Positions 1 through 64,000 of a stretch of DNA of 64,000 nucleotides are shown one piece after another. Positions within the stretch are counted from its first letter, which is position 1. Each line of letters begins with the position of its first letter. The stretch comes from an uncultured Gammaproteobacteria bacterium (GTDB lineage Bacteria; Patescibacteriota; Microgenomatia; UBA10105; UBA927), in assembly GCA_964349125.1 (NCBI GenBank), contig CAYGFH010000002.1:174484-238483 (forward strand), written 5' to 3'. The notes beneath the pieces are model-generated. The model made no database searches. It was not told the DNA's origin and saw nothing but the letters and a program-made list of their open reading frames with translations. Made by a program: the position numbers and the translations under genes.

Positions 1-3000
1 TTCTTGTGACCGACGATACATTTCCTTTTACAAATGCTGAAACCAAATTTCTACTGTTATTATCAATCACAGAGGCAGAAAGTGGAGTGTTCAGACTAGT
101 TGATTTCGCTATGTATGCGCCGTCCTCTGTGCTAAACCAAAGACGATCCAACTGCTCTTTCGGAAGATCAGAGAATGCACTGAGAATGACATCGATTTTG
201 CCGCTATTTGCTGTACGAGTTGCGCTTGAACGCGCAGTATTAAATACTACAATTACTCCTTGTGCAAGCAAATCACGCAACTGTTGTATAACTCTGCGAT
301 CAGTAGTACCGTCATAGTCAATACTTATAGCCTTGTATGGTCTGGCAAAAGCATTCTCTCTAAGAGTTTTTTCACTTGATATTGTTTGTGCAACTGATAG
401 TTTTTCCCAACCTAATCGACCAGCAACCTGGCTAGCTATCATTTGTTTCCAGACATCCTGCATAGTTTTTCCTACCTGACTTGTAATGCTCAGCCTGGAA
501 GGTTTTTCTATTTGCAGATATCCTTCTCCTTTCATATCCGGCGTTATATAAGAACTATCATCCGGGATTGATTTTTCTTCAGACAGCCATGGGTCCAAGA
601 CGGTTACATCCATATGGTGGGATCCGGGAATTACATCAACGAGTTTGGTACGTGCATCCCATTTGATATTTTTCATTTTTCCTTCAACACGGATTTTCAC
701 ATTTCCCAATGCTTTCTGCCTCCTCTGCAGGGAACCATACAGGGAAACAATTGAGCGTGGAGCGACTCTTGTCGATTCATCGACAAACAATATTTTCCCC
801 TGAAACATAGAGGCTAATTTCATGAACGATAGCACTACATTAAACCCTGCTGCATCCATTTCGGAGCTGGCATTGGTGGATGGGATTTTTAGACGATATA
901 TAGGAACTATTTCACCTTCTGATTGCAGATGTAATTTATCTATTATGTCCTTTGGAATCTGGTGTTGAACCGTTTCTCCGTTTATGAATTTACTATAAAG
1001 TCTATCGATATCAGCAGAATGTTCAATAATCCATGGGAATACGTCATCATAGGGCACTTGTTGTACAATCCCATTTCTCTGGGCGACTTCAGGCGAAAAA
1101 GCTTCCGCTGCCACATCTGCAGGAGCGGTTCGTTCGTTGGCAATAATAAATACCGGACTTTTTTTATCTTCATCTCGCAGAGCCAGTGCCAGCTTCCAAA
1201 TTGATAGTGACGCTTCCACATTATGAAACATTGACGCATTTGTCTGTTGTAAATCCAATTTACCCCGCCTCCCGCCAACCAAATCCACCGTCTGTCCCAT
1301 TTGAAGAATAGATATATCAGTCAGCGCATATGGATCATTTTTTTCAGCCGCATCAACGATGATATAACTGAATAAATACACAGCGAGCTCACGGTACGAT
1401 GTGACAGATTCTGAAAACCCTGCAACCAATTGAGCAGGTAATTCTACGTCTTTATTCTGTATGGTATAGCGTATATTTTTTTTGCTCCCGCAAACCAGCC
1501 GGCAAATATCTGTCAGAATATCTACTAATTCCGCTGATTGATATTCCGAATAGTCTTGCGTCACAACTCCCACTGAATTACGTAGCTCTTCGATTCTGGA
1601 ATTATATCGTTCAAGCAACAGTTCGGCTGAATCCAACTGAAGCATATCCTCATCCTTAAGGATGCGAATTTTTTGATACACAGCCATATAGTCGGTTATT
1701 GATTCGTTTTCAATTAATGATCTCAGGAATACTTCCTTTAATTTTTCACCGGATACTGAGTATGCAGATAATTCAAGCCGCAGCTGAATCGCATTATCAG
1801 GAGATATATTTTTATTTGCAGAGAGAGCGGAAATGAGTGTTGGATCCACACTCAGAAATGCTCTAACTCTTTCATTTGCTACGCTTACACCGTGATGTAC
1901 CAATATATGCAGCGCGTTTAATCCATCTGCAGCCTCTTCCGGGAATTTATCGATCCACAGCACGTAGCCGTCGTACACATCCTTAAAGTCCATTTCTAAA
2001 GCATCAAACGCGTCATGTAAAAACTTTTGACCATATATGTGTGTAAACTCATCAATTTGCGAAGGAGAAAGCTGTGCAGTGTTACTGTTTTGCAGTTTCT
2101 GTAACGTGGAAATAGTTGAAAATAGAGCGACTTCGCCTGGAAGAATTTCTCCCTGAACTCCCATAATTTCGGCAAGAGTATTTTGTATAATTCTAAATTT
2201 AAGATCATCCGGGAATGCAGCCACGGAGAGCTCTCTCACCAATGACTCATACCGGCTGTCTTTGGTTGCGGCTTCTATGCGCTCAAGCCTGTGAAAATTC
2301 AATCGCAAGAGCTCCTGCGCGTTTGATTCAGACACGTTATTCCGTTGGATCGATTGGGACAAAAGCCGTAAGTACTGATTATGTTTGAAAATATATTCCA
2401 TGTTCGTCTTATCATCCGAAGAGTCAGATAAAATGGTGGCTTCTGCAAATGCTTTCTTTGACATCTCCTGTGAAAGCACACGTTGTGATTCCCTATCCAG
2501 GAATAATCGCTTAACTGAATTAATTGCTTCAATCGGATCTTGTTGATCAAATACAAAATTAATAATTGCCAATTCAACATATAAGTCACTATCATCTGCG
2601 GCGGCGTTAATTTTGAATATCTCGTCAAAACCCAGTAGAATTTTTTGAACATTTTCTGGACTCAAATGCTGTGGGTTTGGCGTTCGTATCATGCTTTCCA
2701 GAATTGGCGCCCGATTTATATCCCTAACAGTTGCATCGTTTGTCAACTGGTCTACCCACTGTTGGATAAATGGTACGGCTAGCTCCGGTTTTGGTGCGCG
2801 CAGCATGCTAATGAATAAACCACTGCCTGATTGCGGGGAACCAAGCATATCTCTGGAGTCCATGCCGAATGTTCGCTGCAGCTCCGGAATAAGGCGTACG
2901 ATTTCCCGATTAACCACAAGCGGGAGTTGGGTAAAAATTTCAGATAAATAGTCGGATTGATCGTCGGTAAAGCCGTTATTTTTTGCATAAGCCACCAGCG

Positions 3001-58900: not shown

Positions 58901-61900
58901 CGCGTGCGGTATTGCGAGCCACAGTCAATTCTTGAACTTTGGAATTCAACAATGACACATCTGCGCTTAAGACAGATAGTTGCTCTTTCTTAAGCTGTAA
59001 TTTCAATTTAGCGTCAGGATCATTTGATCGTATACCATCAGCTAATAATTTGATCTCGGTTGCACGCAATACTTCAGACTGAAGAGTTGCGATACGAGTA
59101 TCCAGTACTGCCCGTCTCTGTGACAAGGCAAGTTGTTGCTGTGCTACTACATCCGGAAGAACGGCATCTCCAGTTACTACGCCCTGCGCATCCACAGTCT
59201 TCCATACATACTGACCACCTTCTTGAACTGCCTTAAATCCGTTCAAAACGGTAGCGTCTATCTCAACTGTTCCTACATTCCAAACGCCTTTGGCGGCATC
59301 CCAAACTGGTGCTCTTGAGGAATCCCCAAGCGTGTTGCGCGCCGAGACGGCAGCCTGTAATTCGTTTTGGGCATCTATGACGGCTTGTTGCGCTTTCGCC
59401 CCGCTTTCATCCTGAATTCTTAGAACTTCGTTCAGCAACTGTGCCCGATCTCTGGATAATGCAGCTATCTGATCCTGACGGGTTATAATATCTTCCTGAA
59501 TTACCAACTGCCTGGAAGTTAACCCGATGGATTCAACTTTCTGTCTCGCTCGAGATAATTGTTGCAGTGCAGCATCATATTCCGCGGTACCTACCGAGTA
59601 GTCTTTGGCGACGCCCATGAATTTTTCCTGGGCGGCAACATATTCTTGCTGTATAGTTCTCGAACCTTCACTTAACCCATCAAGAAGTCGTTGTGCGGCA
59701 TTTCTGGGATTTTGCATGAGTGCGCGTTCAGCCTCGACAGACGATCGATATATGAGTAAATCATTGGTAGCTGATTGGTAATCACGAAGTGCCTGTGCAT
59801 ACGCAGCAGCATCTGGAGAGAGTGCTTTTAGGGCTTCTTGCGAGAGTAAATATTTGGATTGCGCTTCTTTAAATTTCAGTGCAGAGGGCACATCATCGGC
59901 AATATTGGTTAGCGCTTGTTTTGCAAGCGCGAGCTCATAGCCCTGTGCTCTGATAGCAGTCCGTAGCTGCGTCATAGCAGCAAGCTCTTGTTCAGCCATG
60001 ACAGTGGGTAAACGATTTCCGTTTGCATCGTACATTGACTGTAGCGAGCGACTAGCTGCATCTAGCTGTACAGCTGCGCCGTCTTCGCTGGCCTGTACCC
60101 TTGGACCTCCAGATGTTGGAGTTTTCAGCCCAACACCAAAACCTACTGTTGCCAACGTCGCTTGTGATATAGATTGAGCACATGCACTCGCATCTAACCG
60201 TGCCGCACCAGAAAAACATGCGATACCAGCTTGTAGCGCGCCGCCGCCAGCGTCACCCGCATCAGCAATCTGATTTGTCACAAGCGCGGTTCGAGCTATG
60301 GAGGCTGGATTATTGGCACTAGAGATTAGTGATGCCCCGGATGAAACGATGCGGAATATAGATCCTGCAACCGCCACAGAGTTTGCAGCACAACTCATCG
60401 CATCTTTTTGTCGCCCACCGTTCCCATCATCATAGCCGATAAAACATGCGTTAATGGCTTCGCGGCCCGAGATTATTCCACCCGCGGCACTGAGAGCTAT
60501 GTTGCTATATTGAATCCCACGCCCTGCGCTCATTGTTAATTCTGCCGTTGTTGCAAGAGCGGCACCATTTGCCAGATTTTTGGCATTGTTCACCAGCTCT
60601 ACTCCTTGCGCGGCATTAATTGCAGCATCTGATACTTGAACAGTTTTTTGTATCGCCTGCTGTCCTAAGCTATATGTGCCGGCTATTGCACTAAACGGTA
60701 TCGATGCTGCCTGCACGGCAGTATTGAGACTTGCCCACCGACAGTCAGTCGATGCCACTTGACCTGGCACACACGCAGTTGCGGTACGCTCTAAACTGGC
60801 GGTTGTTCCAATAACGCTTGCACCGACACCGGCTACCGTCAGATATGTCATTGTGGTACCGGCTCCGGCAGCAATCAGCGGCGCAGCTGCCCACGGAGCA
60901 AGCGCTACTGCAGCAACTGCTACTGGAACTGCGGCAACAGGAGCACCTTTTATGAGTGACCCCTGACGGAATTCCGCCATTATCTGCTTTTCTTCTGCGT
61001 TTCCAGCGACTGAATTATAAATTGCGCGTGGTATGTTAAATGCATTTGCTGTCATAACAAGGTTTGTCATCCCTTGACTATCTGCATACCATGCATCTTT
61101 ATGCAGCTCCTGATATTGAGTAACTGCATTCATCTGAATATCATTTCCGCGCTTTACCGCCCCGCTGGTGAAATTATTTAATACGTTCCAAAATTTCATC
61201 CCGACACTAAAATCGTCAATAACTTTTTCTACATCGGTTGCGATCAATTCCCCTCTTTGGAATTGTTCGTATGCCTGCTGATATCCTTCTTCTCCTTTAA
61301 TATTTTGATACGTTGGCGCGACGTCTTCCCATGCGCGAATCTGTTCATTTTGGAAATCTTCGAATGTACCTGTGGGATTGTCTTTCTTATATGCATCAAA
61401 TGCCTTAAGGTAATTTGCATGATACCCATTTGCAGGATCAGAGAGATATGTCCTGACAGCTTCATCTCTTGCTTTTTCAAACTCTCTACGCTCTGCTTCT
61501 GTCTTGAACGTTGACGGATCTATTATTGCTTCGAAGTGTGCGTCTTTTCCTTTTCCTACCAATACAGGGACATAGTTAACCTGCATACCAGAATATGGAT
61601 CAATTCCGCTGCATGTTTTTTCATCAACAGTACAAAATCGTCTGGCACCTGTGTTTGCATCGTAGATAATCGCCCCATCGATACAGGCGCCGCCTCCGCA
61701 GGCTCCATTGCATTGTTTTGTGCTGACAACAGCACCGTCACCACGCTGTCCAGCTGTTGGATTGAATGTTTCTACAGAGTTTCCATCTTCTGAGCATCGG
61801 TTGTATGCGGTAGATTGCCACATTCCAAAAATACCACCTACTTTTACTTCCACTTGCCCGCTTCCTGCCCCAATTACAGGACATCCGTCTGCTCCTTCCA

Positions 61901-64000
61901 CGAGTGCATACGGACTTGTGATGTCGACTTTTTGCTCAGATACTTTTCCGTTTGTCCCTGTGGTTGCCACATATCTGTCAGATCCTTTACAGTACGGTTT
62001 TCCTGCGAGCACGGTAATTGTTTGGGCACTCCCGCCGGTTGCCGATGGTATGGTAACACGTAAGGTTGGGATATCCGCTTTTAAGTCGGCGGGAAGATTG
62101 TTTAATAGTGTCTGTTTTGCCTGCTCAACGTTACCACACTCAGCCACGCGGGAAGTTTTAGAGCCTCCCTCGACTAATCTGCAGCGCTCTAATATTTCCA
62201 TATCTGTACCCGCAAGCGCTTCCATGGTGATCAACGCAGTACTTCGACTAGAAAACGCCAGACGATCAGATGCGCTCAATGTTGGTGAAATAATTAATTT
62301 AGCAAACGTCATGTCACCGCACCTAGCCTGATCAGCAGCGCTCTCGACAAGAATCTGACACGCGCTAACCACATCTGCAAACGAACCTTTGACTGCTGCA
62401 TTGCTTATATATGAATTGAAGCTGTCTCGAAATGCCTGTTTTTCCTCTGTTGTACCGTTGAACTGTAAGAGAAGCTGCTCACGAATTTTATTTGGGTCGC
62501 AAACTTTCGGATCTTTTCCTGCACAGAGTTCTGCGTTCGTTGCAAAATACTTATCTTCAAGTACCGTAAATCGTTCATATTTTTGTGTGATCTGTGTTAC
62601 GCAACTGTTGGTGCTTTGTATAACCGTGCCTCGTTCTCCTCCGCTACTCACTTCGCTGCACAAACCATCCAATTGTTTTAAGTTAGCGAGTAATTGATTT
62701 GGATTAGTTACATTTGCACATTGCGTGGCTCCAGGTTGCTGACATCGTTCCCACTCTGCTACAGCATGCGAGTATTCAACGTAATATGTATCTTGCAGAT
62801 ACTTTGCGAAATTTGCATCCAATCCTGACGTATCCATACCGTATGCTCCACCGGTTTGGATAAACGCCTGTTTCATGGCTACTTCATATCCTCCGCACCG
62901 CGCGGCAGCATTTGATTCACCATACTGGGCTTTGCAGCGCTCATAGAGTTCCTTCTGCTTATAGTAATCACCTACTGCGTCGATTGATGTACGTGATTCG
63001 ACAAATTGTGATCTGAGTATCAAAGAGGCTTCAGATCCACCGTACGCCTTAACCGCCTTCTGTGCACATACTGCCGCACTCGTATCCGTAAGCAGACATG
63101 CATCATAGTCAGATTGAATTGTACCGACTTTTTTTTGCTTTGCAGCATACGCAGCGGCAAGGATAGGATCTGTAATGACATAGAATGTATTTCCGGATTT
63201 TATGCATGTTCCTGCAGCCAATTCATTTTCAGTACAAGAACCAACAGACTTTCTCGCATAGTCCGGAATATTAGTAATATCGGGTACGCACATTACGTCT
63301 TTTTCAGGATTACACGTTACCCAGACAGGATTCCCGGCAGCATTGGCACTACAGACGTATCCACCCATGACGACAGTGCCCACTCCGAAACTGGTACCAT
63401 CTGAGCCGCTACAGGAACCCTTTGGAATACTTATCTCCTCACCGGCTTCCTTAGTATTAAGTCTTGCAGCTTCAAATTGTGCAACTTGCACTGAATTTTG
63501 CGTCTGGGAACCCACATACCAACTTGGTATATATTTATCGGTCAAATCGGCTTCTGTAATACCCACGTTTGCATTCGTCAAGTCTATATACGTACCGGTT
63601 CGCCCATCACATCCGTATAAATGATGTCCTTCTCCGATAACAACAGCGCCGGCTTCTATACCTCCACAACTCTGATTCCCTTTTTTCAGGTCTGTCAAAA
63701 TCGCAGGAGGGGCGGATGGTGCTACAGAGGTCGCACTCGCAGGTGGAGGTGTGGTTCCCGGTACTATCGCGGCTGTTGGATTCGCAGAAGGAACAGTACC
63801 ACTCACGCCAAACCTTCTGTTGCATTCATCAATGTTTCCGGGCACTCCCCTCGCACCATACATACACATGTTATATGCCAGTTGCTGCGCTGCCGTTAAT
63901 GTAGGTGCTACTGTTGGAACCGCAGTTGTTGGCTTCGGATTCTGGGCAATACATTTAGTAATCTCTGCCTGTACTCCGCCGGCTTTTTGTATACATTCTC
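31947..64000 (-). CDS. Giant multidomain protein, gene A. It is 5'-partial: the frame is open to the window edge, the first in-window Met is at 63869 and the stop is at 31947-31949. More than 10,680 codons are visible. Predicted to be a secreted or surface-anchored mosaic protein with embedded metallophosphatase-like, lipase/esterase-like and HExxH metalloprotease-like segments and an internal polytopic membrane domain.
   Basis: The six-frame track gives a single 10,640 aa minus-strand ORF, 31947..63869. I checked by hand that the same frame stays open from 63870 to 64000 (...PTTAVPTVAPTLTAAQQLAYN-MCMYGARG...), so the true start is upstream of the window. The C-terminal codons and the TAA at 31947-49 were verified codon by codon. 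The protein has a non-random composition with Cys-rich, coiled-coil, TM and motif-bearing segments. All long plus-strand ORFs in this span are antisense shadows. Confidence 0.9.
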   Translation of the reverse strand, partial: ECIQKAGGVQAEITKCIAQNPKPTTAVPTVAPTLTAAQQLAYNMCMYGARGVPGNIDECNRRFGVSGTVPSANPTAAIVPGTTPPPASATSVAPSAPPAILTDLKKGNQSCGGIEAGAVVIGEGHHLYGCDGRTGTYIDLTNANVGITEADLTDKYIPSWYVGSQTQNSVQVAQFEAARLNTKEAGEEISIPKGSCSGSDGTSFGVGTVVMGGYVCSANAAGNPVWVTCNPEKDVMCVPDITNIPDYARKSVGSCTENELAAGTCIKSGNTFYVITDPILAAAYAAKQKKVGTIQSDYDACLLTDTSAAVCAQKAVKAYGGSEASLILRSQFVESRTSIDAVGDYYKQKELYERCKAQYGESNAAARCGGYEVAMKQAFIQTGGAYGMDTSGLDANFAKYLQDTYYVEYSHAVAEWERCQQPGATQCANVTNPNQLLANLKQLDGLCSEVSSGGERGTVIQSTNSCVTQITQKYERFTVLEDKYFATNAELCAGKDPKVCDPNKIREQLLLQFNGTTEEKQAFRDSFNSYISNAAVKGSFADVVSACQILVESAADQARCGDMTFAKLIISPTLSASDRLAFSSRSTALITMEALAGTDMEILERCRLVEGGSKTSRVAECGNVEQAKQTLLNNLPADLKADIPTLRVTIPSATGGSAQTITVLAGKPYCKGSDRYVATTGTNGKVSEQKVDITSPYALVEGADGCPVIGAGSGQVEVKVGGIFGMWQSTAYNRCSEDGNSVETFNPTAGQRGDGAVVSTKQCNGACGGGACIDGAIIYDANTGARRFCTVDEKTCSGIDPYSGMQVNYVPVLVGKGKDAHFEAIIDPSTFKTEAERREFEKARDEAVRTYLSDPANGYHANYLKAFDAYKKDNPTGTFEDFQNEQIRAWEDVAPTYQNIKGEEGYQQAYEQFQRGELIATDVEKVIDDFSVGMKFWNVLNNFTSGAVKRGNDIQMNAVTQYQELHKDAWYADSQGMTNLVMTANAFNIPRAIYNSVAGNAEEKQIMAEFRQGSLIKGAPVAAVPVAVAAVALAPWAAAPLIAAGAGTTMTYLTVAGVGASVIGTTASLERTATACVPGQVASTDCRWASLNTAVQAASIPFSAIAGTYSLGQQAIQKTVQVSDAAINAAQGVELVNNAKNLANGAALATTAELTMSAGRGIQYSNIALSAAGGIISGREAINACFIGYDDGNGGRQKDAMSCAANSVAVAGSIFRIVSSGASLISSANNPASIARTALVTNQIADAGDAGGGALQAGIACFSGAARLDASACAQSISQATLATVGFGVGLKTPTSGGPRVQASEDGAAVQLDAASRSLQSMYDANGNRLPTVMAEQELAAMTQLRTAIRAQGYELALAKQALTNIADDVPSALKFKEAQSKYLLSQEALKALSPDAAAYAQALRDYQSATNDLLIYRSSVEAERALMQNPRNAAQRLLDGLSEGSRTIQQEYVAAQEKFMGVAKDYSVGTAEYDAALQQLSRARQKVESIGLTSRQLVIQEDIITRQDQIAALSRDRAQLLNEVLRIQDESGAKAQQAVIDAQNELQAAVSARNTLGDSSRAPVWDAAKGVWNVGTVEIDATVLNGFKAVQEGGQYVWKTVDAQGVVTGDAVLPDVVAQQQLALSQRRAVLDTRIATLQSEVLRATEIKLLADGIRSNDPDAKLKLQLKKEQLSVLSADVSLLNSKVQELTVARNTARGVQRIIAAVRERFIGRPDGTGAIRIGRTTQNELTQVNDAFVQKRTEQIVATDLAAGEVSARIKAKIGTNTGDVDAVQKAISDVYTEMSQKRGVTGESELYTLAFERAKKSLESAGYTDSKYINKAADSIARAAETQVNNTKNMVQFAYMESNFITISNKLDRLTGIDRELAGSPSQTKKRALLKEQATLIRETQGSVRSLIDPSDVAKMTTIAKIKEAHVALRIDASKQIVDAGGPNARDAASIVEQAAASRQKITDLQIERDTQLRKTTDGAQRDQIQKDFNAQIKTEMDTLGTTLTRAQELASNAPAGERVQALSQLRDVQSAIKKLGLLGDIQVTKSQLDAALAIKGKSRDSKLIASLTKRLADQMSAQEVVFPKGLDESAGLAFETIMGDTELRLGLLDGEYRSWKNNQIDTMMSLLGDNARAVELVTSGGKTVVLTAMLRVDVEVFGRERGIYVARKGQADAFLQQLRTLMPNGEESVVRLKSDDLRGDIADLQRIHDQLSSGKILLTEPEDLAFIRNMALETYGLDAKKGSLIGDIYRLATANVALGVDELQLAFDPSIQMINPASSARAVVPPEVVGAAKDVYDVLIADDVAIMKQGVPDQGVKKTIGGKPAIVKVIDANGVVVKDARFSKEAQTLIYTKLAQKKGIPTDVFMKIVDNAEVLNTASANPAQLAVEAQKLGIPQGDIAKVLDLVDATNRYASGLTMSYDTEFFRGFDAKGRLVTIPGNSGSMSEGQTYNSRMQAVMEAIGATAFGKTPPNFEGLEVAPDRAYKSGFHDVISDISGYANGAVRAVTGSIAEQAGVLQNSYQLGVTKSSATFDKIFNGADGNPPRLTADRSYRASGDGFIDIAAAIRSGKKLDSSGPNGLASNGSAKHVLAGDLNMSTIEYARRQQMSGKYPKDTPWVVQVGGSEYYDVKFNADGSIQAGYTDATGNLSQRIPDATGGSGKLAQRFASGEANLNVVISRGGATGDNIPTPENIPGITITTKDTAQGVVVQGASRLDRKEWIATQYLIVVDDTAGQFSTLSRAQMNDTQFAAFKQSIADAQTTLEKFNTAQANSLGLESAAKKPLEDIILRYRSSSDPAAQRIAEWASVKLLDLSSGASGRDVRTTSSARSTLEARNEQFAQMTKSFQALFDDPANKPYLDIIERSSPDLFKRLTINRDVMNGNTGTNPLSYLAEGVQIDSKDPPLLARDLGEYQRAHNATVKASSEAQQLAGSGKPDIKPVVQKQATPVAKSGFRTFMEARAPFVANLIWRPRPVVLPALQRIDSDMEISSSLSRGSISAFESAQVQAGYITAAMAVAEKIRTGQQITDEERNTFMAGRAAALSLQISAERNRDALAQTAGTQVATVKGIDMVGKIFETGDRISNIPVADDGRMILVGPRGGVTEISVSAMTLGDFDTYATFYIKPGTRKPTLKGSRAAKIRALQRSANTVEIKPSSTIQRSNVSSAATAFGDIAIAQETVDRAEAQVIAFDQIFDQDIRGRVRQVFTGSSQSTTALENATVAYIDAIQQAAQRNSNPNITPEVLETLVNPSAKASFDKEVHALFTATRLSTVRAMGEDGLRAQLLGDALGSAVSVAQIAAARVSSVPMADISGIVGISVPTTSVRDMLMNYVLLPSPWNPKWSAAERTRQWRALIVRQFATGGVGFIVDVVHYLIDARQHNTGYSRIGGMLADAARVRRELQGIGGTTIVPPLGAPATVIPPVAGVPIDTTLSDAAVRAAAIAQGIAAAGITGTKTPQQRSDILTGLIAAQIEALPEQDALATAWEAVVDAQSANAGNVSLQKAAKRSLRQGDVIPVVDVVSGKGNVIALTLDRDVWYTIGTDTTRRRIPTNGGVLNFDDTIVFYAEKSGRKKPLGILGGKLLARVSDADSGAHIRRSVYAPSVIEANDAYQKLVASNSTLQTTINLTTLYTAYIEVIKESLQTEFTRLGLTGSLLTDDDELVAIFQARVMAKARDDVPIDEDANIRAYMEAKFAGKETLLASLPKLQSDATVIDYTAWLDSLTQPVLNSVKVTTPPVSAPPISAPPVVAPVVDPAIAAEKAKKNTDALAILRTAYAELIASQRAAILAEVAKLKDTPLRPDEAAEQVEVIVRSGIFKSGFSNTAYTTTILAKLTAAGLTQAEAKAAYDEFVTKVVDPNFATITTAIMAGLTSTKTVTQKTVKVTETQAETLRYMYADYHSDVTKLQQMLEADNLITVKSDGSWEWVGGNSAKVIFLGDYMDRGVDKDGNIQAFLENDPARKKDKYYPGLEILNRLTALKSQAEAAGSEFTMLGGNHEVEFLWAMFEPDNSPRWDLFQRNGVSRREVAIAKKHLGLIRGWLENLSWISLRSDKSVMQHTDTAIYAKFIFSDDIAAVQDYDELDINDINRIAARVKAEKLTPEDVVRRINAGIRAQIRLASVPQLRTLFRSLTHHGQFSSSRAISDAYRGIFTAPVLYHGHNILKDPVYHNGTVVGLDVGLSAAYRDANSRFIGTTRIAGRTTIDSKPVDVTTYTYAYDANVLQSVDTKVPTNYVFGIFSSSPVAPASTKSTVTGAVAKAGSWLGSIINAVVRPQLYDGTTKKFQWGQIAISAGRTAVFIITKTFGLGVPWLAYDVYNTSVHLSDNPTFKTTHAWIGDNILFPNFWAKGLTPPARFWKTVSWVGTRFVGGLFVPQLIIPTLIHDGARFVADVFAGTAESIQALFAQTMDWSDSFTGFQKTLAKITIWGGWTIGAFATIAGLSLTLNAISIAFAVAPVISTAVSTGTAVSTTVWARGFTLLTSLFIFSNIISMINVIPKPADSAPDRNKNLYGIHAYILSPNPLGNNETPTWGVIKTVSLVTRWSLSGFNPILIGTDVLNMVINNRFRNRTPAAVQHTTPGTTGGAGVTTTLSDSTYEVKDTFWSKVTSLLGSYGVSWPRANGIEWLAQLVPAGIRGSYWWTAFTFTKGAVSLHAGLPFWLLQESRHFLEKIPKDSPWRFLLDTNELLFPTQWNDPTVHPVINVLKWPVWGVTRFFVAFGAQQWWLPIMDVMRWVDRYMNTGAAAPAVYTTGANVPWREAVGKIIPGFAPAPASFDDLPQWKQNLWKVTDSWFSKLLFSTPRNKTGWFLGSRGLPLIMVPKVSLGLILFDLFRSSVTPGGYFEYWSSDPYNQKGTLSNLAATAELDALVAKPTTLEAINFANKAIDKKELDALTDAPTKKRAQVMFDLKTAWIKYIADAKNVGKLLSMIEEGILKKTPDKATLDIVNLLMTVPGSTNPDRTNTVFDKDQKMIYALQFTEGIIAQLSVLNEASDRAVAAGTVNQGQSIADTKAALLSAIADQPKATDVTRQLFLVWLDRKAAELSKLPAKAVTPAAIVGGNYATPTGRKLLMDKAQVIVNQNKLPGDLTAQDAFTLYQGLLASDMAIAAADAASLPSTSTRFTSVLNDDIRIKIQRGFGDLSSTEVNKQQLKDIAANIFETEMNYVKNGTLSSAEDTININLIAFIIDPANKLLAPARYQKMNGATPLQLRNIQYGDFVQIPVTEIPGPAAANTAKDAARTAFAEYVAEYRGDFIEDVLSTKRSVPTIVRDRRAEYEATDEFAALLAVDPTAKVDTFLTAELNSIVQDVGALSSAWTSAEQNKIIAYGVSLLESGRKLIFGSLTTQIRNAVAKGSVSDDVYEAWVDKVAISMETKARDQYDTKVAKPKASPPKASKTDKVNEVYEDFLAVRNNLTALEGLSDSQKLLNKEWATADLRKLADELESLGLAKTSATTYTGLASYIRKLDKAQFSSAMTADSATKPFAKAVKNFLQWTDEKAKDGYHLTVFTTIKEEIVSQMNRTRPKPVTIQEKLDALNKIDKKKVRDVFKSQLQEFRPELTSISATDMNEAIDASIALQRYSVATVDLASLMELTKIGSNVIWPIITQIGGNVRGIQDYTSSLILPAFFRAIGRSQTVDRAEQIRKVVMTGLSPLTDMIGRAEDIVKLTNSINGKIKRLQAGIIADDVDENGFLNKSGVEASILVQYKRLTDGNQKGIFSKIQALVANGIIAPDAYAADVKAIGIALSDLGFDVPSDPAQIIKFIESLNVRLVSSVVSAGADVDKLTAAVDALDNKTKISADGIDSIMGATMYAKLLESLKQSFSAQSGPADVLNGIQSVQVDELMAAGKAAYGEYMGGSLPKNKEAALRASAEQILAMSTYLLPMGQLTDYLGMDIPKYNEETLGQILTGDAKRTAQTKFIQQSLKFYEKAIKKAQGNLSALEHIRYALEGAVLPIARLARGVSQVRAVIADVNAQIDSLMPSAKVLKDPFPALLSSAKWNAREKKYINHVKQAIEMMKSGKYEEVISQLSKSNAEEIAEGVGMLVDEGKNTLDPENGLRFENSSQHLKGTLMLGNTDISKLTMDQLRNVALMHIEQWSYGIQDLQAEKLKDHAVDIGIISGRAKNQTTFDYRTDVALFMQEAGIRLTPAFIGRYGRDAFVNKTGESVLQTYADPSIRSVFTLGKGNQADIIVSGDTDIAAVSVNIVRKADGNWYVKNVSTESQIDINLVVKAYNSETLLNDRDVLTIGGTSFIVSKGSSGMQLIDEKSGKEVAFFGSAGSIRSYSQDTATKILTDGATTKLNKNDVRSTIASLGSSANVSNIILDGNDQTIDARHLEIFVNDGVWYVRDVSTNGILVDGKKIKTKAKVTTLYNKSIITLTNGVSIVAQLSRNRQELTLQRADTQSGLRKILSEEVRKVREENNNQAGSISIDDAKKMLSGVVKKDKLTRLDRTYRYVIGRLDMGEHVLPVFDIGMRTRIDSLITRTSDYKGKGIKKIDQLSEGEIYLLLGHTLAAIDTLTEFAGKKSLLNNTDALVDSLGDAVESLTGKSRSSLFEKPPSTAVTLKEREKYLKGVVINPVSNELAKKLYSDGFTGLHRHADDDVSELFINYTEIAKMSQEKQIAALIHVFLHERLHIPQKGTSSQRYPGNNPTYKEILDEAMVYIAIAQQKGKKLTIFQTGTQRPKISDVERYLNDAVIDIASVYQRGTIQLIQQVIRLAASSKLGEQEVWSLFFDAALSGDITPFERAYNATFGDGKFGSKFSSNFSDASYYTTNAYKNAGDEADLEDSTIPGNQAEAIPVSSGLLANKKILVVDPASVHGSGIVQSLQFDGANASTTLAIADRDLAYLQTLDAIVVANSLPEAQIARIKANAGNVPVIEFTPEYEGNMEGFGQKVAQAITPDSALLLNQNQSTLAKSDIEAALKEGFQGGTPWIFPATFIPDLEKIPVEQIPDKIALIRESFFTLKRRLQDARDIVTATNIGVGEKQQMIFSAIGYDVLLESGINPDALFTAIGTAVKSGSYDRASFVNFLVLGYEGNGDTQGAALQAVLNTIDAVLAPMEKTLSSIETRAETIRQKKNENLRQGDAIRLPTQSVSAPSQNAPIAPSAPLVSTSQQRDLAEKWLGTELVSSLRTLFPSTTGDSTVQSILNSLASRIHHTLNDPSEQVLEESDVSAHFPWYQSGRLFTFMREAKNSREALQSLLFNEVALDGLIRDGGQTVVGSLLIKNIDQIVAAMPKNSMLRDTVLRMIAHRIESELARTTRSSSTYQIVVRQSPASVEFVILSDNASDTQIPTDVSAALRKYLGGTFFRNGLQVPAIIDGRRVNRELQFAIKNKREFETSQTSPLVRSNTSLIGRVSDFYTTFPPDIQAAILPLIEMASGTNPKVDVDAVRKKIVDRISQLTVNSSMEQGLPKVRVFHTGADAISYVRRKANNNFVTAVRIGVEDTSQNGKSDESQRAAFKTIIEYLRTLVPDIDVTAVYDAEASAWYLLVPDSTYSNIALSLSKLPEHMREKYIGRTGLATVTVTAEPIVLDQSEQQPGATSHEDMEVGYQRAFDSLDEPALDAQVMDIIRRFVDFANDPQGHEPTSDESKAVYELLNPSSQRGRIVLERLGLTERNMTNLAEYWNADVESKFTKKDFFGVKKGLVGRALLDYRKRRLGEEQLKADAQIEGAAKRIEAAKKTMTVSMQIAPGAYYVQESAFIDPRAGIFQFETISSDVEDPSAEYSADLLTIRLPTETLLELQRLQQNDHPEFLNRITVMLANKNKKVRIFIHGFHASKEVFRLFSKFAIPESTLENPVFADAKSLRGAEQTARKKSWVVETTQDGKPVLDSDGNYKRITGLQAWWYNVTDVGKLAYWALNKAKPPILRGSRRYVVQDVIRQIKIGNAALGIDSEQIELMLGHSYGAYTVEMFGIETYKDERYKNVRFVGDASVVNNNPNHLSLLYPDTKLKGNALRADKFLKWATRVFNNPVFPASWRRFFMSIGSLPVLRYEGKWTSLLGRIYDNLDVYSDGFHIVTSRSVHTATERKNPEMAGKDLVMLASLEDLFKYKTQMRELVNQGRLQLVVPDSEEKTAKSIDHILNSFFTFVLAWDMKNIEPPLPNRSSFMTRRTSGHYPPPEDWNVIIDAMNKVGVQPTLNSEVGVARSQSQAVSPLQANDSIAVKLMKMSATVGQIVSDVSTVINDRRIYDKKTGQLREKANLMDQFLMFLYPTYRTIRNIGKSPAFIQAKFALQSVALSDPDTAVIDHSIKGYYRQHIYDPDNYPIERNGNVLSSKTEEALLRWLTQQEVLERSIVQQSVDKVVAFAKAARVPSDSTVLQRTVAVLDDVSFDRELRAFARRKLRLDGVVNPTDSQITEYTQTIPGFYDHDFDMVVLRASAAVLAKSDEKIQAFLDDLVAHEFGHSMTTRYEPWLTREANEALSITFMIARRAYELQEAGKTPDTDGTYWKQAREQVLNDFVSPEYKSHFIAFEDSVIGTLFKLDTSTNNRIAQIMEFFNLTKDINPQAVETNKTDISVGLQLRTKFTEILEKMSITKATYTVDGKAVEVALDHDVVTDTFTKSFNGFRFTQDAPDEVVRFTSVANQIATPSDGLPDPSVINGGYVYMGVSGDAMWLRLPKEFTQSVYIGSELLRNEVAYQIRPGDVLTFERAPHDAAAHQYIVTVSHDASSEIGFEPVGRVQPVEYPKKQVPTSGEWTEALNVEAENYYRMRGKLALAAEGDSVMLKGMPKAGGDAIERRLSLYTSHTDFKAILAAFDTTQSLEIIVGDQQVGTISTSPADLYTANIEPGMYTTNRTSSHISPMSAPTVVKDESASSGQTTRISSKRLVSSYERARDYEISKIFLRVLGLSESSNKRLYDAAARTLVESKSLQEIFIFFKRSLLDHDEMVELPNIELSQNTDVSIIKKLEQEYTVRSQQRIWGQDAISMLSGLGGKLIGTVYLRELDGLAVSGNSPESQLVLRARAYVMQKVLKENKGALTNFEVVRVSANRYAIVSFDESFTYPELEKLFNKTEYKNLDAVLPGKSGIAISPVQPIITEPDEFLTALFAPEQYERGLLTKDGAVQIPANNPLYKNLVTHYGSLDTLLRGVIEEDALPAAGPEFIDRIRSLLVHLVVEDAVVETSLEIEKENQKFADDPSYSYTVYPDASDALEDAVRTFEKVSVIRIDDPSLGLAYTHESKKVADEMLKDMLRKINDVATRKLLFKNIIIYHPPGTSEFYLFAQSTFPFNKNEVSTHLQSVFGNSAKAYTPSGSERSYLRIPVVAMQPIPTEDGRPLLETFLDVKATLDDEIGLRTRQQIRKALTNNFQEVEPWKWSWFRELLRDTPSLVKQFNPNTESPQEYTDVFMRAILTSESSEDKALDMVLGDKENDNWSIAYQIDNHHKGSVTKLERFLMPVLERLFGKSKYKLNANRIDDTEMNGFEAEMNAATPPLIGRTADRVITEFVAQDDVNIEPSRALSALVTLGFSQDMYLHEFPQQWILNMDFTQKGHPPVSKKTEQNVVVGVYAKSTKSWKTVNIPYSMLTKLFESFDAATPESLVSIQSQLDAYIRAELSSAVASTKAPKHISFAYWDDPSTQGEAQRDWVARTGAPIVVGKDAKGWPMVANDHIIAHGYYANRMMRDLKSALGVVGDISTLRNRPYIQDDTRYKNTIFIDEVPGGAIDFYAATIAMAAASRIGGRTAVSTMVGVPGLDKDNKLTLTKNGQVVPVAISALRQVSRQELQNLITEGRAGKSLLQRIYTAYRGKIPSWMEWFFTNIVMASPFINGTQGILRGPLLTNISDKYDGVPHGLTTINQTGDYAFNMAIMTDTTNGTAFITSNGFGNPEIAARTREAFAKYYNLVKNGESFEWPTPIPWYQRAGEWILWQLERLASVYTGPYVHDRPWPALFAIPKTAHTLITVDPIAETETISDLKALPLYVVNRMDASGKINIVIQKTGTETQPVAINGQIVNSAVTLFPGDTISFGDSDQYRVRVDSSSGIVFEHTKTGAQIRPRGIVSGIPSDGDYLNQPTRTAYLSVSNTTQTNLKRVISRYHPEIPYQLLMIQREVPRDSTAIPLVALAAGKDFDIVSGEAPFIVSYQGVPIGRMTRYGNKIELIFEGSSALQSANLDASSMQAEAENEAISSDPSTYPVSGALLPKSEKTQVVSLDKIPGVTISITDETLLLSDPENSISLVMTIPNADKIRENGIIPESILEYVVENYYFHLLTESRKSDAGGTPLIAQRIIELQYRIDTAADPDIRGMLDDIKIIATYPDPLASSPTVITIEIGYQPGETGLLRVDRQGVQRVQPPVSEKGEPAEAVRVRKVQMSNAWFAIASPSLSSRLADELKKIFATVAGVEDPQEAVTRALLYAPSQAQDIALAMLRPSGTNSIVPGGATNMTFVNETLDSTPANPAERERRIDNFVNRALLHIRSFEKRTGAQAVKYWYSMNEVGEYVFATDNTDASIKQLLRDAIVKINDTIGKKPTIHIGLDVAGSNEYPVLISLEQEKDPVVRKNILPTIKITFKHLSTTTLKSSATVDSCTTPRVSFRLLSTVFAQSNTGCIYLYSGKPYYSPDGNKLGEMPSSGIFFEKGSILPHFFNGSDKIIFGNTATITVWSLRGRQDIKGSDIMPIIEEIQPVSEGAQSGTVMTAMQDFWGGIVKSANAFITILRNGVKALVANGLMGIYRAFKDTPNYCAV
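38794..38808 (-). other. Gene A HExxH site 2 (DDLVAHEFGHSMTTRYEPW), a zincin-like metalloprotease motif
   Basis: The plus strand gtgaccaaattcatg reverse-complements to H-E-F-G-H. It is flanked by AH...GH and a downstream EPW, typical of minimal zincins. Confidence 0.45.
40280..40720 (-). other. Gene A alpha/beta-hydrolase (lipase/esterase, PGAP1/DUF676-like) segment: IFIHGF oxyanion motif, then GHSYG nucleophile elbow
   Basis: GHSYG is encoded at about 40286-40303 (plus strand gtaggcaccgtaagaatggcc). KVRIFIHGFHAS lies about 140 aa upstream in the same ORF. The order and the G-H-S-x-G pentapeptide match serine hydrolases. Confidence 0.45.
42781..42790 (-). repeat. Homopolymer T10 (A10 on the coding strand) inside gene A, encoding QKKNEN
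   Basis: The plus strand has tttttttttt at 42781-42790. The reverse complement is cgt caa aaa aaa aat gaa, which matches the ORF-track protein ETIRQKKNENLRQ. Confidence 0.8.
44115..44129 (-). other. Gene A HExxH site 1 (IHVFLHERLHIPQ)
   Basis: The plus strand atggagcctctcatg reverse-complements to H-E-R-L-H. The context AALIHVFLHERLH was confirmed by reverse-complement. Confidence 0.3.
49527..51290 (-). other. Gene A internal polytopic, Trp-rich membrane domain (about 590 aa, at least 6 predicted TM helices)
   Basis: Several uncharged 20-45 residue hydrophobic helices were read directly. One is ITIWGGWTIGAFATIAGLSLTLNAISIAFAVAPVISTAVSTGTAV at about 50590-50760. Others include GFTLLTSLFIFSNIISMINVI, RFVGGLFVPQLIIPTLI, FFVAFGAQQWWLPIM and LPLIMVPKVSLGLILFDLF. 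Trp-dense loops lie between them (GSYWWTAFTF, VLKWPVWGVT). Boundaries are at GAVAKAGSWLG (about 51290) and LILFDLF (about 49527). The 399 aa plus-strand ORF 49570..50769 is its antisense shadow. Confidence 0.6.
52023..52205 (-). other. Gene A calcineurin-like / PPP metallophosphoesterase motifs II and III (GDYMDRG ... GNHE)
   Basis: GNHE is encoded at 52023-52034 (plus strand ttcatggttgcc). FLGDYMDRG is encoded at about 52185-52211. The two lie about 50 aa apart in the order expected for PF00149-type phosphoesterases. A canonical motif I (GDxHG) was not found upstream; SDGSWEW occupies its place. Confidence 0.5.
52740..52830 (-). other. Gene A Pro-rich interdomain linker (VTTPPVSAPPISAPPVVAPVVDP)
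   Basis: Located by reverse-complement of plus 52740-52830. It lies just C-terminal to the phosphatase-like block. Confidence 0.6.
57450..60050 (-). other. Gene A extended alpha-helical / coiled-coil stalk (about 850 aa)
   Basis: The protein between QELAAMTQLRTAIRAQ... and ...LTKRLADQMSAQE is dominated by Q/E/A/L/R/K heptad-like sequence with few Pro or Gly. An example is LQSEVLRATEIKLLADGIRSNDPDAKLKLQLKKEQLSVLSADVSLLNSKVQELTVARN. Confidence 0.5.
60800..60950 (-). other. Gene A Ala-rich hydrophobic segment (AAVPVAVAAVALAPWAAAPLIAAGAGTTMTYLTVAGVGASVIG), a putative membrane anchor
   Basis: A run of about 45 apolar residues follows the Cys-rich region immediately. It was located by reverse-complement at about 60800-60950. 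Confidence 0.45.
61000..64000 (-). other. Gene A N-terminal Cys-rich (about 5 percent Cys) presumably extracellular region with a Pro/Ala/Ser/Thr-rich linker
   Basis: The ORF-track protein has about 40 Cys in the first about 750 in-window residues (CSGSDG, VTCNPEKDVMC, TKQCNGACGGGAC, among others). A low-complexity TTPPPASATSVAPSAPP linker lies near 63700-63780. Confidence 0.5.

Follow-up and report, generated by a model that had tools for sequence, protein, structure and literature searches.

The window (the whole stretch of DNA analyzed, 64,000 nucleotides) is filled by two genuine, separate genes, A and B, of more than 10,000 codons each. As an explanation of the findings as a whole we favor, with a probability of roughly 55%, two genuine giant mosaic genes from the Candidate Phyla Radiation (CPR), the second of which accreted around a CPR-wide protein. 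The host, whose taxonomy we infer from protein relationships, is most likely a CPR (Patescibacteria) bacterium, and the nearest sampled relative of its lineage is MAG binchicken_co130_63.

The two genes were evident from stop-free frames on the minus strand. Thus, frame 2 was open from 63998 to 31950 (ORF A, 10,683 codons) and closed by a TAA at 31947–31949, and frame 0 was open from 31552 to 2 (ORF B, 10,517 codons). The probability of this absence of stops by chance, given base composition, was 1e-275 for A and 1e-298 for B; the other five frames held 262–750 stops each and the remaining stop-free stretches of the window were at most 432 codons long. An ORF listing started A at ATG 63869 (10,640 aa), with the frame open on to the window edge. 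Since the frame is open to this edge and the pattern of Cys pairs reaches residue one, the 5' end of A is most likely cut by the window. The 3' end of B is cut by the left edge within a HAD-like motif, and its start is uncertain, as none of the candidate ATGs (31528, 31465 and 31357) was accompanied by a Shine-Dalgarno-like sequence. Neither giant gene is repetitive, no tandem repeats were found by Tandem Repeats Finder, and Rfam gave no matches. A genetic code in which TGA is read as sense (Gracilibacteria/Absconditabacteria) is unlikely, since no in-frame TGA occurs in 21,200 codons. These results bear out the first-pass annotation of the window, which described two co-directional, non-repetitive giant ORFs, both truncated by its edges, and correctly gave their minimum sizes as about 10.45k and about 10.68k aa.

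An assembly or sequencing artefact, either a chimera of two organisms or ordinary genes merged through lost stops, is exceedingly improbable. Total GC is unequal (44–48% in A versus 42–43% in B), a gap that follows from amino acid composition, A being rich in Ala. In contrast, GC3 was even (0.37–0.42 in all quarters) and the RSCU values of A and B were correlated (r=0.94), which argues for one genome and against a chimera. An error that removed hundreds of stops is not credible given the numbers in the other frames. Moreover, independent assemblies contained ORFs of the same family, one with 5,944 aa and two others with no fewer than 5,054 and 5,270 aa, and in one of these assemblies (L003) an A-like ORF precedes the B-like gene.

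From the TAA of A to the candidate ATGs of B there are 419–590 bp of 32–35% GC with several stops per frame. Stops in every frame of this spacer exclude a single gene split by a frameshift and indicate that A and B are separate ORFs. The AT-rich spacer and the hairpin noted in it earlier were both present; the hairpin (z=-2.8) overlaps the first in-frame ATG of B, about 400 nt past the stop of A, and the label "terminator-like" is weak because it has no U-tract. A terminator scan found nothing, and a sigma-70 promoter scan of the spacer gave results that were not over shuffled expectation.

Table 1. Coordinates of features in the 64,000-nucleotide window.
Feature	Coordinates	Strand	Remarks
Giant ORF A, 10,683 codons + TAA	31947..63998	-	5' end most likely beyond window
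A aa 1-1273, Cys-rich region	60180..63998	-	
A aa 1015-1070, Ala/Val-rich hydrophobic stretch	60789..60956	-	1-2 candidate membrane helices
A aa 4433-4489, two uncharged hydrophobic 19-mers	50532..50702	-	In Trp-rich region
A aa 6305-6371, FHA domain	44886..45086	-	PF00498, E 3.6e-13
A aa 8249-8479, HExxH segment common with B	38562..39254	-	AHEFGH...(14 aa)...NEA
A aa 9705-9864	34407..34886	-	Weakly like ORF just upstream of L003 B-like giant gene
A-B spacer	31529..31946	-	32-35% GC, stops in all three frames
Hairpin GUUCAUCCCGC-CUC-GCGGGAUGAAU	31523..31547	-	11-bp stem, no U-tract
Giant ORF B, frame open from 31552	2..31528	-	3' end beyond window
B aa 65-83, uncharged hydrophobic segment	31304..31360	-	After K/R/H-rich residues
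B aa 148-1996	25565..31111	-	Collinear with aa 2146-3988 of L003 5,944-aa ORF
B aa 1089-1965, module copy 1	25658..28288	-	Helical + GNAT-fold
B aa 2306-3024	22481..24637	-	Separate gene in CPR contig L130
B aa 5814-6665, module copy 2	11558..14113	-	28% identity to copy 1, E 2e-88
B aa 8203-8409, HExxH segment common with A	6326..6946	-	AHEAGH...(14)...WNEG
B aa 8857-9400	3353..4984	-	Similar to tail of L016 giant gene, 35% identity, E 1e-74
B aa 8896-8964, canonical GNAT domain	4661-4867	-	PF00583, E 1.2e-7
B aa 10411-10517, HAD-IIB-like start	2..322	-	Cut by edge; motif level only

The relationship of B to the CPR was indicated by a module, present twice, in which a GNAT-fold C-terminal domain (approximately 25796–26383 in copy 1) is preceded by a 640-aa helical domain. 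Each copy could be aligned with 267 family members across about 850 columns, at E-values as low as 1e-187, and identities of the module to named CPR loci by tblastn were 30–53%. The family signatures ENMRECL[SA]C and NNDT[ND]L[TS]F were represented by ENMRECLA and NNDTDLTM in copy 1 and by ENIRACLA and NNDTNLTF in copy 2, and invariant columns R664, C666, L667, N678-T681 and L683 were kept in both. After strand 4, where GNAT proteins bind the pyrophosphate of acyl-CoA through the motif (Q/R)-x-x-G-x-(G/A), this family has the consensus DRxYGxK. Copy 1 was a partial match (DRPYGSV); the R-x-x-G motif was gone from copy 2 (DTLYETK), and this copy has probably lost its cofactor motif.

In the stand-alone CPR family (1,400–1,900 aa; KKQ35245.1 / UniRef100_A0A0G0H9N7, MDP3970300.1, MBI4066324.1, P0154), the approximately 850-aa module common with B forms the C-terminal end of a soluble protein whose Cys content is ordinary (median 0.56%), and 129 of 133 stand-alone relatives were without any hydrophobic segment. 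In B, by contrast, the module is internal, doubled and enclosed in an ORF that exceeds 10,500 codons, an extended form with internal module that B shared only with L003, L005 and L016. All named relatives of the module were from CPR/Patescibacteria and none from Omnitrophota, which makes the episymbiotic candidate-phylum origin proposed earlier likely. The class within CPR was not resolved by a neighbor-joining tree, no model for the family was found in Pfam or NCBIfam, and a metagenome scan with the module profile revealed no relative above 37% identity. Clustering of gene neighborhoods at the module gene identified no widely conserved neighbor and so offered no operon clue to function.

The closest relative of B is the 5,944-aa ORF of L003 (MAG binchicken_co130_63, contig CAYUZE010000006.1), which was 37% identical to B aa 148–1996 over 1,881 aa and 53% identical in the module. 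This ORF carries a weak FHA match, a GNAT and no Cys in its first 3,779 residues, and the ORF upstream of it, across a gene junction that contains a 10-N scaffold gap, resembles the C-terminal part of A. It differs from B in being half the size or less and in having a single copy of the module, and it ends in a hydrophobic segment and a Cys-rich C-terminal domain with HEYMH, both of which are absent from the window proteins.

Other parts of B also had counterparts elsewhere. Thus, a separate gene of L130, the second downstream from the module gene, encodes a 1,376-aa protein whose C-terminal half was homologous to aa 2306–3024 (E 1e-64), and the segment with the canonical GNAT domain was also present in another large relative, L016. 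This domain scored 32.4 bits against a Pfam gathering cut-off of 20.7 and contained RGGGLG (motif A). In the tail of B, IDYDGT and GVIVVFNTARS, which would correspond to HAD-IIB motifs I (DxDxT) and II (S/T), are 21 residues apart with the rest of the domain outside the window; the one match of this HAD-like tail was to 1xpj, with an E-value of only 0.08, and Pfam gave none.

Protein A appears to be lineage-specific. When every tile of A and B was compared by jackhmmer with the ORFs of 161 related loci, A was an orphan save for the match of aa 9705–9864 to the L003 upstream ORF (25% identity, phmmer 2e-8). Nearly all of the 40 Cys in aa 1–1273 are paired 8–20 residues apart, with Pro/Thr/Ala linkers, and this region is a candidate disulfide-bonded part, probably extracytoplasmic; no homology was detected to the C-terminal domains of L003 and L005, which are likewise rich in Cys. 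Elsewhere A has no Cys across 9,252 residues. The hydrophobic 19-mers at aa 4433–4489 are a candidate membrane helical hairpin, and the FHA domain scored 50.2 bits against a gathering cut-off of 20.7 and covered profile positions 3–66 of 67.

A and B share only one segment, of about 230 aa and 28–31% identity, and are hardly the paralogs that the first-pass annotation had suggested. The HExxH and a downstream Glu ligand, the arrangement of gluzincins, were kept in both copies, and the segment is a putative gluzincin-type zinc peptidase motif by sequence. Its predicted structure was of low confidence and a fold search was uninformative.

In 21,200 residues Pfam recognized FHA (in A) and GNAT (in B) and nothing else; when ten sub-segments were scanned leniently, with E-values up to 0.5 allowed, all matches other than GNAT were noise, and NCBIfam matched none of seven key segments. 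No matches were obtained with the last 917 aa of B in GTDB representative genomes, JGI metagenomes and IMG/VR, with A aa 8000–9500 and the last 2,500 aa of B in a word-index search of 5.8 billion proteins (none at E<=1e-3), with A and B save B aa 5001–5517 in a PDB sequence search, or with the last 3,000 aa of B in tblastn against phages and plasmids. Phage origin was rejected, as PHROGs gave only a weak acetyltransferase match for aa 1–9700 of A and of B. The FHA and GNAT domains, the two GNAT-fold modules, the HExxH segments and the HAD-like tail agree with an earlier description of helical stretches with enzyme-like segments.

The proteins are almost free of Cys, what remains being in close pairs, and the same purge was noted in L003, L005 and L016. 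Hydropathy indicated 3–4 candidate hydrophobic helices in A and 2 in B (per approximately 10,000 aa), including aa 65–83 of B, which with a start of B at 31465 or 31528 would be a candidate signal anchor. The earlier reading of A and B as a pair of giant surface proteins was only partly supported, given so few helices and their absence from nearly all stand-alone relatives of the module. Moreover, GNAT, FHA and HAD are kinds of domain that normally work in the cytoplasm, and an extracytoplasmic look is limited to the first 1,270 or so residues of A, where Cys pairs abound.

Loss of Cys bears also on a rather unlikely alternative, in which A and B would be multi-effector polyproteins exported unfolded and delivered to a host cell in the manner of MARTX or large clostridial toxins, where GNAT, HAD, FHA and kinase-type segments would act on host targets once the embedded protease has cut. 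Little Cys is present in RTX and autotransporter passengers and in Gram-positive exoproteins, and MARTX toxins, a functional analogy only, combine several unrelated enzyme modules and a processing protease in one very long Cys-poor polypeptide. Consistent with export are the almost absolute exclusion of Cys from A and B, with leftover Cys in close pairs, and an equal purge of L003, L005 and L016 relative to the stand-alone median of 0.56%. The basic stretch and uncharged hydrophobic segment at the N-terminus of B would place the bulk of the protein outside by the positive-inside rule, both proteins contain the HExxH segment, and CPR bacteria are episymbionts or predators (PMC8080830). Against export, Pfam detected neither RTX repeats (HemolysinCabind) nor a cysteine-protease processing domain (CPD), and type I or other secretion genes are absent from the window. 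The near-universal CPR core module, with no signal peptide or hydrophobic segment in 129 of 133 cases, looks like a housekeeping cytoplasmic protein, and the start codon of B, lacking Shine-Dalgarno support, is uncertain. Somewhat less doubtful, yet still tentative, is the possibility that a little-sampled Patescibacteria lineage turned the soluble, near-universal 1,600-aa CPR protein by duplication and fusion with other genes into Cys-purged mega-polyproteins that would be threaded across the membrane, or reach a host as multi-enzyme effectors, and be cut by their own HExxH segment.

Under the favored reading of CPR giant mosaic genes, each gene would be translated separately, into one mosaic protein that exceeds 10,000 residues and is not repetitive. 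B would have accreted around a CPR protein of about 1,600 aa, soluble and standing alone in nearly all lineages, whose long helical domain ends in a divergent GNAT-fold domain. B would hold this protein twice and add segments that occur elsewhere in CPR as genes of their own or within large genes of another arrangement, together with a canonical GNAT, a peptidase-like HExxH segment and the start of a HAD-like phosphatase. In A, a Cys-pair region that probably lies outside the cell would be followed by one or two hydrophobic helices and then by about 9,250 Cys-free residues that carry the FHA domain and an HExxH segment like that of B. As to topology, processing and biological role, we infer a working mode in which A and B would be paired multi-enzyme scaffolds or polyproteins, tethered to the membrane, that might be cut up by their own HExxH segment and could bring together acyl transfer with phospho-dependent binding, dephosphorylation and proteolysis. 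A role in envelope or host-interface biology of an episymbiont is plausible.

Giant mosaic genes are so far known mainly from Omnitrophota, and in the CPR/Patescibacteria literature that we found no proteins of this size are described, "giant" there meaning about 4,000 aa. The two tandem genes would represent roughly 6% or more of a typical CPR genome, if this is assumed to be about 1 Mb, and would use up a large share of such tiny genomes. Three leads emerge: an uncharacterized helical and GNAT-fold protein family across named CPR groups; growth of giant genes by duplication and fusion of segments that are separate genes elsewhere; and extreme lineage-wide removal of Cys, confined to the giant versions, which offers a testable hint of export or of constraints on the folding of very long polypeptides. 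If the mega-polyprotein possibility were true, it would also provide a first functional handle on the uncharacterized CPR-wide protein.

The claim that proteins above 10,000 aa are extremely rare needs qualification. From 18 samples, 3,650 proteins of at least 10,000 aa, mostly from Omnitrophota, were listed in one preprint (Nielsen and Lui 2026, bioRxiv 10.64898/2026.06.07.730766), but the giants reported for the CPR are 1,392–4,163 aa long. The latter are large proteins in the membrane of Vampirococcus lugosii, a CPR predator; they consist of adhesion and interaction domains (WD40, PKD, integrin, fibronectin), and a role in contact with the host has been proposed for them (PMC8080830). The window proteins are at least 2.5 times longer and are without these domains. 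Omnitrophota giants (bioRxiv 10.1101/2023.11.21.568195; 10.64898/2026.06.07.730766) resemble A and B as non-repetitive, sequence-unique multi-enzyme mosaics of more than 10,000 aa from ultra-small host-dependent bacteria, with embedded GNAT/HAD-type domains and large unannotated stretches, and it has been proposed that their embedded peptidases cleave the proteins themselves (West-Roberts et al. 2023; Nielsen and Lui 2026). That the window itself derives from Omnitrophota or other PVC bacteria, with A and B as giants of the Archaeovorin, dockerin or SecA-DEAD classes, is nevertheless very unlikely. The size class and mosaic architecture are the same, few domains are as common as GNAT and HAD in the long proteins of Omnitrophota, and 15% of the latter proteins are Pfam-dark and most are sequence-unique. 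However, SecA_DEAD, dockerin, TSP3, C39 and S8 were not found by Pfam in any of the 21,200 residues, candidate membrane helices number 2–4 per protein as opposed to numerous in full-length Omnitrophota giants, and the core of B is a protein whose named relatives are CPR without exception. If the mega-polyprotein possibility were true, A and B would represent a route to giant proteins independent of that taken by Omnitrophota.

Two giant minus-strand ORFs, A and B, were evident in the window, as claimed in the first-pass annotation, and the probability of no stop occurring at the observed base composition was approximately 1e-275 and 1e-298 for the two frames. The longest other stop-free stretch in the window was no longer than 432 codons, and the other five frames contained 262–750 stops per gene. 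The longest off-frame ORF, antisense to A and facing a Trp-rich hydrophobic part of it, is most likely a shadow ORF. An ORF listing placed an ATG of A at 63869, which would give 10,640 aa. Since the frame is still open up to the window edge and the paired-cysteine pattern of A continues to residue 2, the 5' end of A very probably lies beyond the window; B, in which the first in-frame ATGs are at 31528, 31465 and 31357, is cut by the left window edge within a HAD-like motif. The AT-rich spacer between A and B (419–590 bp, 32–35% GC), also noted at first pass, contains stops in all three frames, so A and B are two ORFs and a single frameshifted gene is ruled out. The terminator-like hairpin described there is real (z=-2.8) but lacks a U-tract, lies approximately 400 nt past the stop of A and was not called by a terminator scan. 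Tandem repeats were not found in the window, in keeping with the claim that neither product is a simple repeat protein, and no Rfam family was found there. GC3 was 0.37–0.42 in all quarters of A and B, and RSCU values of the two genes were closely correlated (r=0.94), while the higher total GC of A was ascribed to its alanine-rich composition. The even GC3 and the RSCU agreement argue against a chimera, and an artifact appears very improbable.

Features of the window and long ORFs of three related loci (residues counted from the start of each open frame)
Feature	Position	Residues	Strand	Remarks
ORF A	63998 to 31950; TAA at 31947-31949		minus	stop-free frame, 10,683 codons
ORF B	31552 to 2		minus	stop-free frame, 10,517 codons
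Antisense ORF	49570-50769		plus	399 aa
Hairpin	31523-31547			11-bp stem
Paired-cysteine region		A 1-1273		40 cysteines
Hydrophobic stretch		A 1015-1070		Ala/Val-rich
Cysteine-free region	31950-60179	A 1274-10525		9,252 residues
A/B common segment		A 8249-8479; B 8203-8409		28% identity
FHA domain		A 6305-6371		Pfam, E 3.6e-13
GNAT domain		B 8896-8964		Pfam, E 1.2e-7; RGGGLG motif
Module copy 1		B 1089-1965		
Module copy 2	11558-14113	B 5814-6665		
36-residue motif, first	~21380-21490	B ~3362-3397		
36-residue motif, second	~17100-17200	B ~4784-4820		
L003 long ORF				5,944 aa
L005 long ORF				at least 5,054 aa
L016 long ORF				at least 4,395 aa, plus 871-aa ORF

The suggestion that A and B are paralogous was not borne out, as BLASTP detected one shared segment only, and the two are not paralogues. 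Pfam searches, proposed in the same annotation and run over all tiles of both proteins, placed an FHA domain in A and a GNAT domain in B, with no other domain above threshold, and no further domain was gained from NCBIfam (seven key segments), PHROGs or PDB sequence searches. In all, folds were assigned to less than 5% of the two proteins. The last 107 residues of B (IDYDGT...GVIVVFNTARS) have the motif I/II spacing of HAD-IIB phosphatases; profile searches with this tail, a candidate HAD-IIB start cut by the window, gave no match. B contains a 36-residue motif, including a Cys pair, in two places 1,400 residues apart (47% identity), with dissimilar surroundings.

Tile-against-tile BLAST identified two copies of one helical plus GNAT-fold module of approximately 850 aa in B (28% identity, E 2e-88). 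A two-copy profile searched against 1.84 billion representative proteins returned 267 relatives (209 below 1e-30, best 1e-187), nearly all of 1,400–2,800 aa with the module as their C-terminal ~800 residues. Pfam domains were not found in these relatives, which were annotated at the source, where at all, as 'hypothetical protein' and for which the named sources were Candidatus Saccharimonadaceae, Gottesmanbacteria, Nomurabacteria and one unclassified MAG labeled only 'bacterium'. A module scan over one genome per GTDB species yielded 79 loci, and all informative titles among these were of CPR (Candidate Phyla Radiation/Patescibacteria) lineages, i.e., Levy-, Ames-, Davies-, Woese-, Shapiro-, Dojka-, Berkel-, Kerfeld-, Magasanik-, Falkow-, Nomura- and Harrisonbacteria, Saccharibacteria, and Gracili-, Peri- and Peregrinibacteria. 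Many 'binchicken' MAGs among loci L003–L081 bear the title 'uncultured Gammaproteobacteria', with Bacillota as the title of one locus. These titles look like placeholder names or mislabels, since the four so-titled loci included in a neighbor-joining tree of the module all nest among CPR lineages.

Module genes sit in ordinary chromosomal settings, e.g., beside DnaE, FtsJ and DAGK genes. Saccharibacteria-like contigs carry, after the module gene, a conserved series of genes for a 253-aa protein, DUF3152, a 238-aa protein and DAGK_cat (L001 5066–8069; L002 8521–11524), a run that is not kept across other CPR groups. The family consensus after strand 4, DRxYGxK, partially matches the acyl-CoA-binding motif R-x-x-G-x-G/A; copy 1 in B keeps DRPYGSV, and in copy 2 the motif is lost (DTLYETK). 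Copy 2 shares no more identity with copy 1 (28%) than with Levybacteria members (30%) and is an old duplicate or else one that has degenerated.

The usual family member in most genomes is of 1,400–1,900 aa, and much longer ORFs running past the module were noted at three loci, L003 (MAG binchicken_co130_63, CAYUZE010000006.1), L005 and L016. The two L016 ORFs flank a 10-N scaffold gap (13224–13233) and, because an ABC1-kinase Pfam match is continuous across it, make up a single gene (5,270 aa or more). L003 is the closest relative of the window: residues 2146–3988 of its long ORF, which also contains a weak FHA match and a GNAT, were 37% identical to B aa 148–1996 (53% in the module). The ORF immediately upstream resembles A aa 9705–9864 (phmmer 2e-8, a weak match, besides which no relatives of A were detected), so the A-then-B order is not unique to the window; a 10-N scaffold gap (713–722) lies exactly at the apparent junction of this A-like ORF and the long ORF. 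The C-terminal half of a 1,376-aa protein, encoded by a gene of its own at L130, is homologous to B aa 2306–3024 (1e-64). This gene lies two genes downstream of a 1,606-aa module gene, the order being that of B; the neighbor-gene fusion was seen against this one contig, and no conserved neighborhood of the module family was found otherwise. B aa 8857–9400, GNAT included, matched the tail of the L016 gene (35% identity, 1e-74), and a further C-terminal block common to L003 and L005 is absent from B. Given the module copies and the homologies to L130 and L016 pieces, B is thus a mosaic, formed by module duplication and the joining of pieces that are free-standing or differently arranged in other CPR genomes.

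Cysteines in the first part of A are nearly all paired 8–20 residues apart and separated by Pro/Thr/Ala linkers, and the next 9,252 residues contain none, a run with a chance of approximately 1e-34 at the 0.84% Cys of ordinary ORFs in 161 related loci. B contains 22 cysteines, almost all in close pairs, versus about 88 expected. The long ORF of L003 is Cys-free over its first 3,779 residues (641–11980), which are followed by a hydrophobic segment and a Cys-rich C-terminal domain (620 aa, 36 Cys; ~16600–18604, aa 5300–5988) that ends with HEYMH; that of L005 is Cys-free over its first 3,966 residues (2–11900) and has a homologous Cys-rich C-terminal domain (~13200–15217), with no hydrophobic segment detected. 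Hydrophobic segments of any kind were absent from 129 of 133 full-length family members. L016 contains 8 Cys in 4,423 residues, and the median for stand-alone members is 0.56% Cys. We read the Cys-rich parts as probable extracytoplasmic, disulfide-bonded domains, and that of L003 and L005, with its zinc-peptidase-like HEYMH, resembles an extracellular protease head carried by a body that lacks cysteine.

The purge of cysteine from the bulk of these proteins fits export in an unfolded state and is not what one would expect of a cytoplasmic protein, yet the GNAT, FHA, HAD and ABC1 kinase domains are of cytoplasmic type. An exported MARTX-like multi-effector polyprotein would agree with this purge and with the basic-then-hydrophobic N-terminus of B but is rather unlikely, as RTX repeats and secretion genes are absent from the window and the core module looks housekeeping. 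We favor, with a probability of about 0.55, the reading that both giant genes are real, come from an unsampled CPR bacterium and code for multi-enzyme scaffolds or polyproteins tethered to the membrane. B would have grown from the CPR-wide protein with its helical part and GNAT fold, the HExxH segment common to A and B (a putative gluzincin-type zinc peptidase motif) may serve in processing, and the products may act at the envelope or host interface.

Within the CPR, Peregrinibacteria show an enrichment of proteins >5,000 aa. Proteins of at least 10,000 aa occur in several phyla, most often in Omnitrophota (West-Roberts et al., bioRxiv 10.1101/2023.11.21.568195); SecA_DEAD, dockerin and many-TM features were looked for in A and B and not found, and giants of the Omnitrophota type are thus a very improbable match. 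The first-pass view that proteins >10,000 aa are extremely rare has to be qualified in view of the 3,650 proteins of at least 10,000 aa reported from 18 samples, a set that is 15% Pfam-dark, in which 80% of sequence clusters are singletons and in which GNAT and HAD rank with the most frequent embedded domains (Nielsen and Lui, bioRxiv 10.64898/2026.06.07.730766). In the CPR predator Vampirococcus, the proteins described as 'giant' are of 1,392–4,163 aa (PMC8080830). A and B fit the kind of giant mosaic protein known from ultra-small host-dependent bacteria, while differing from known examples in lineage, conserved core, few membrane helices and cysteine pattern.
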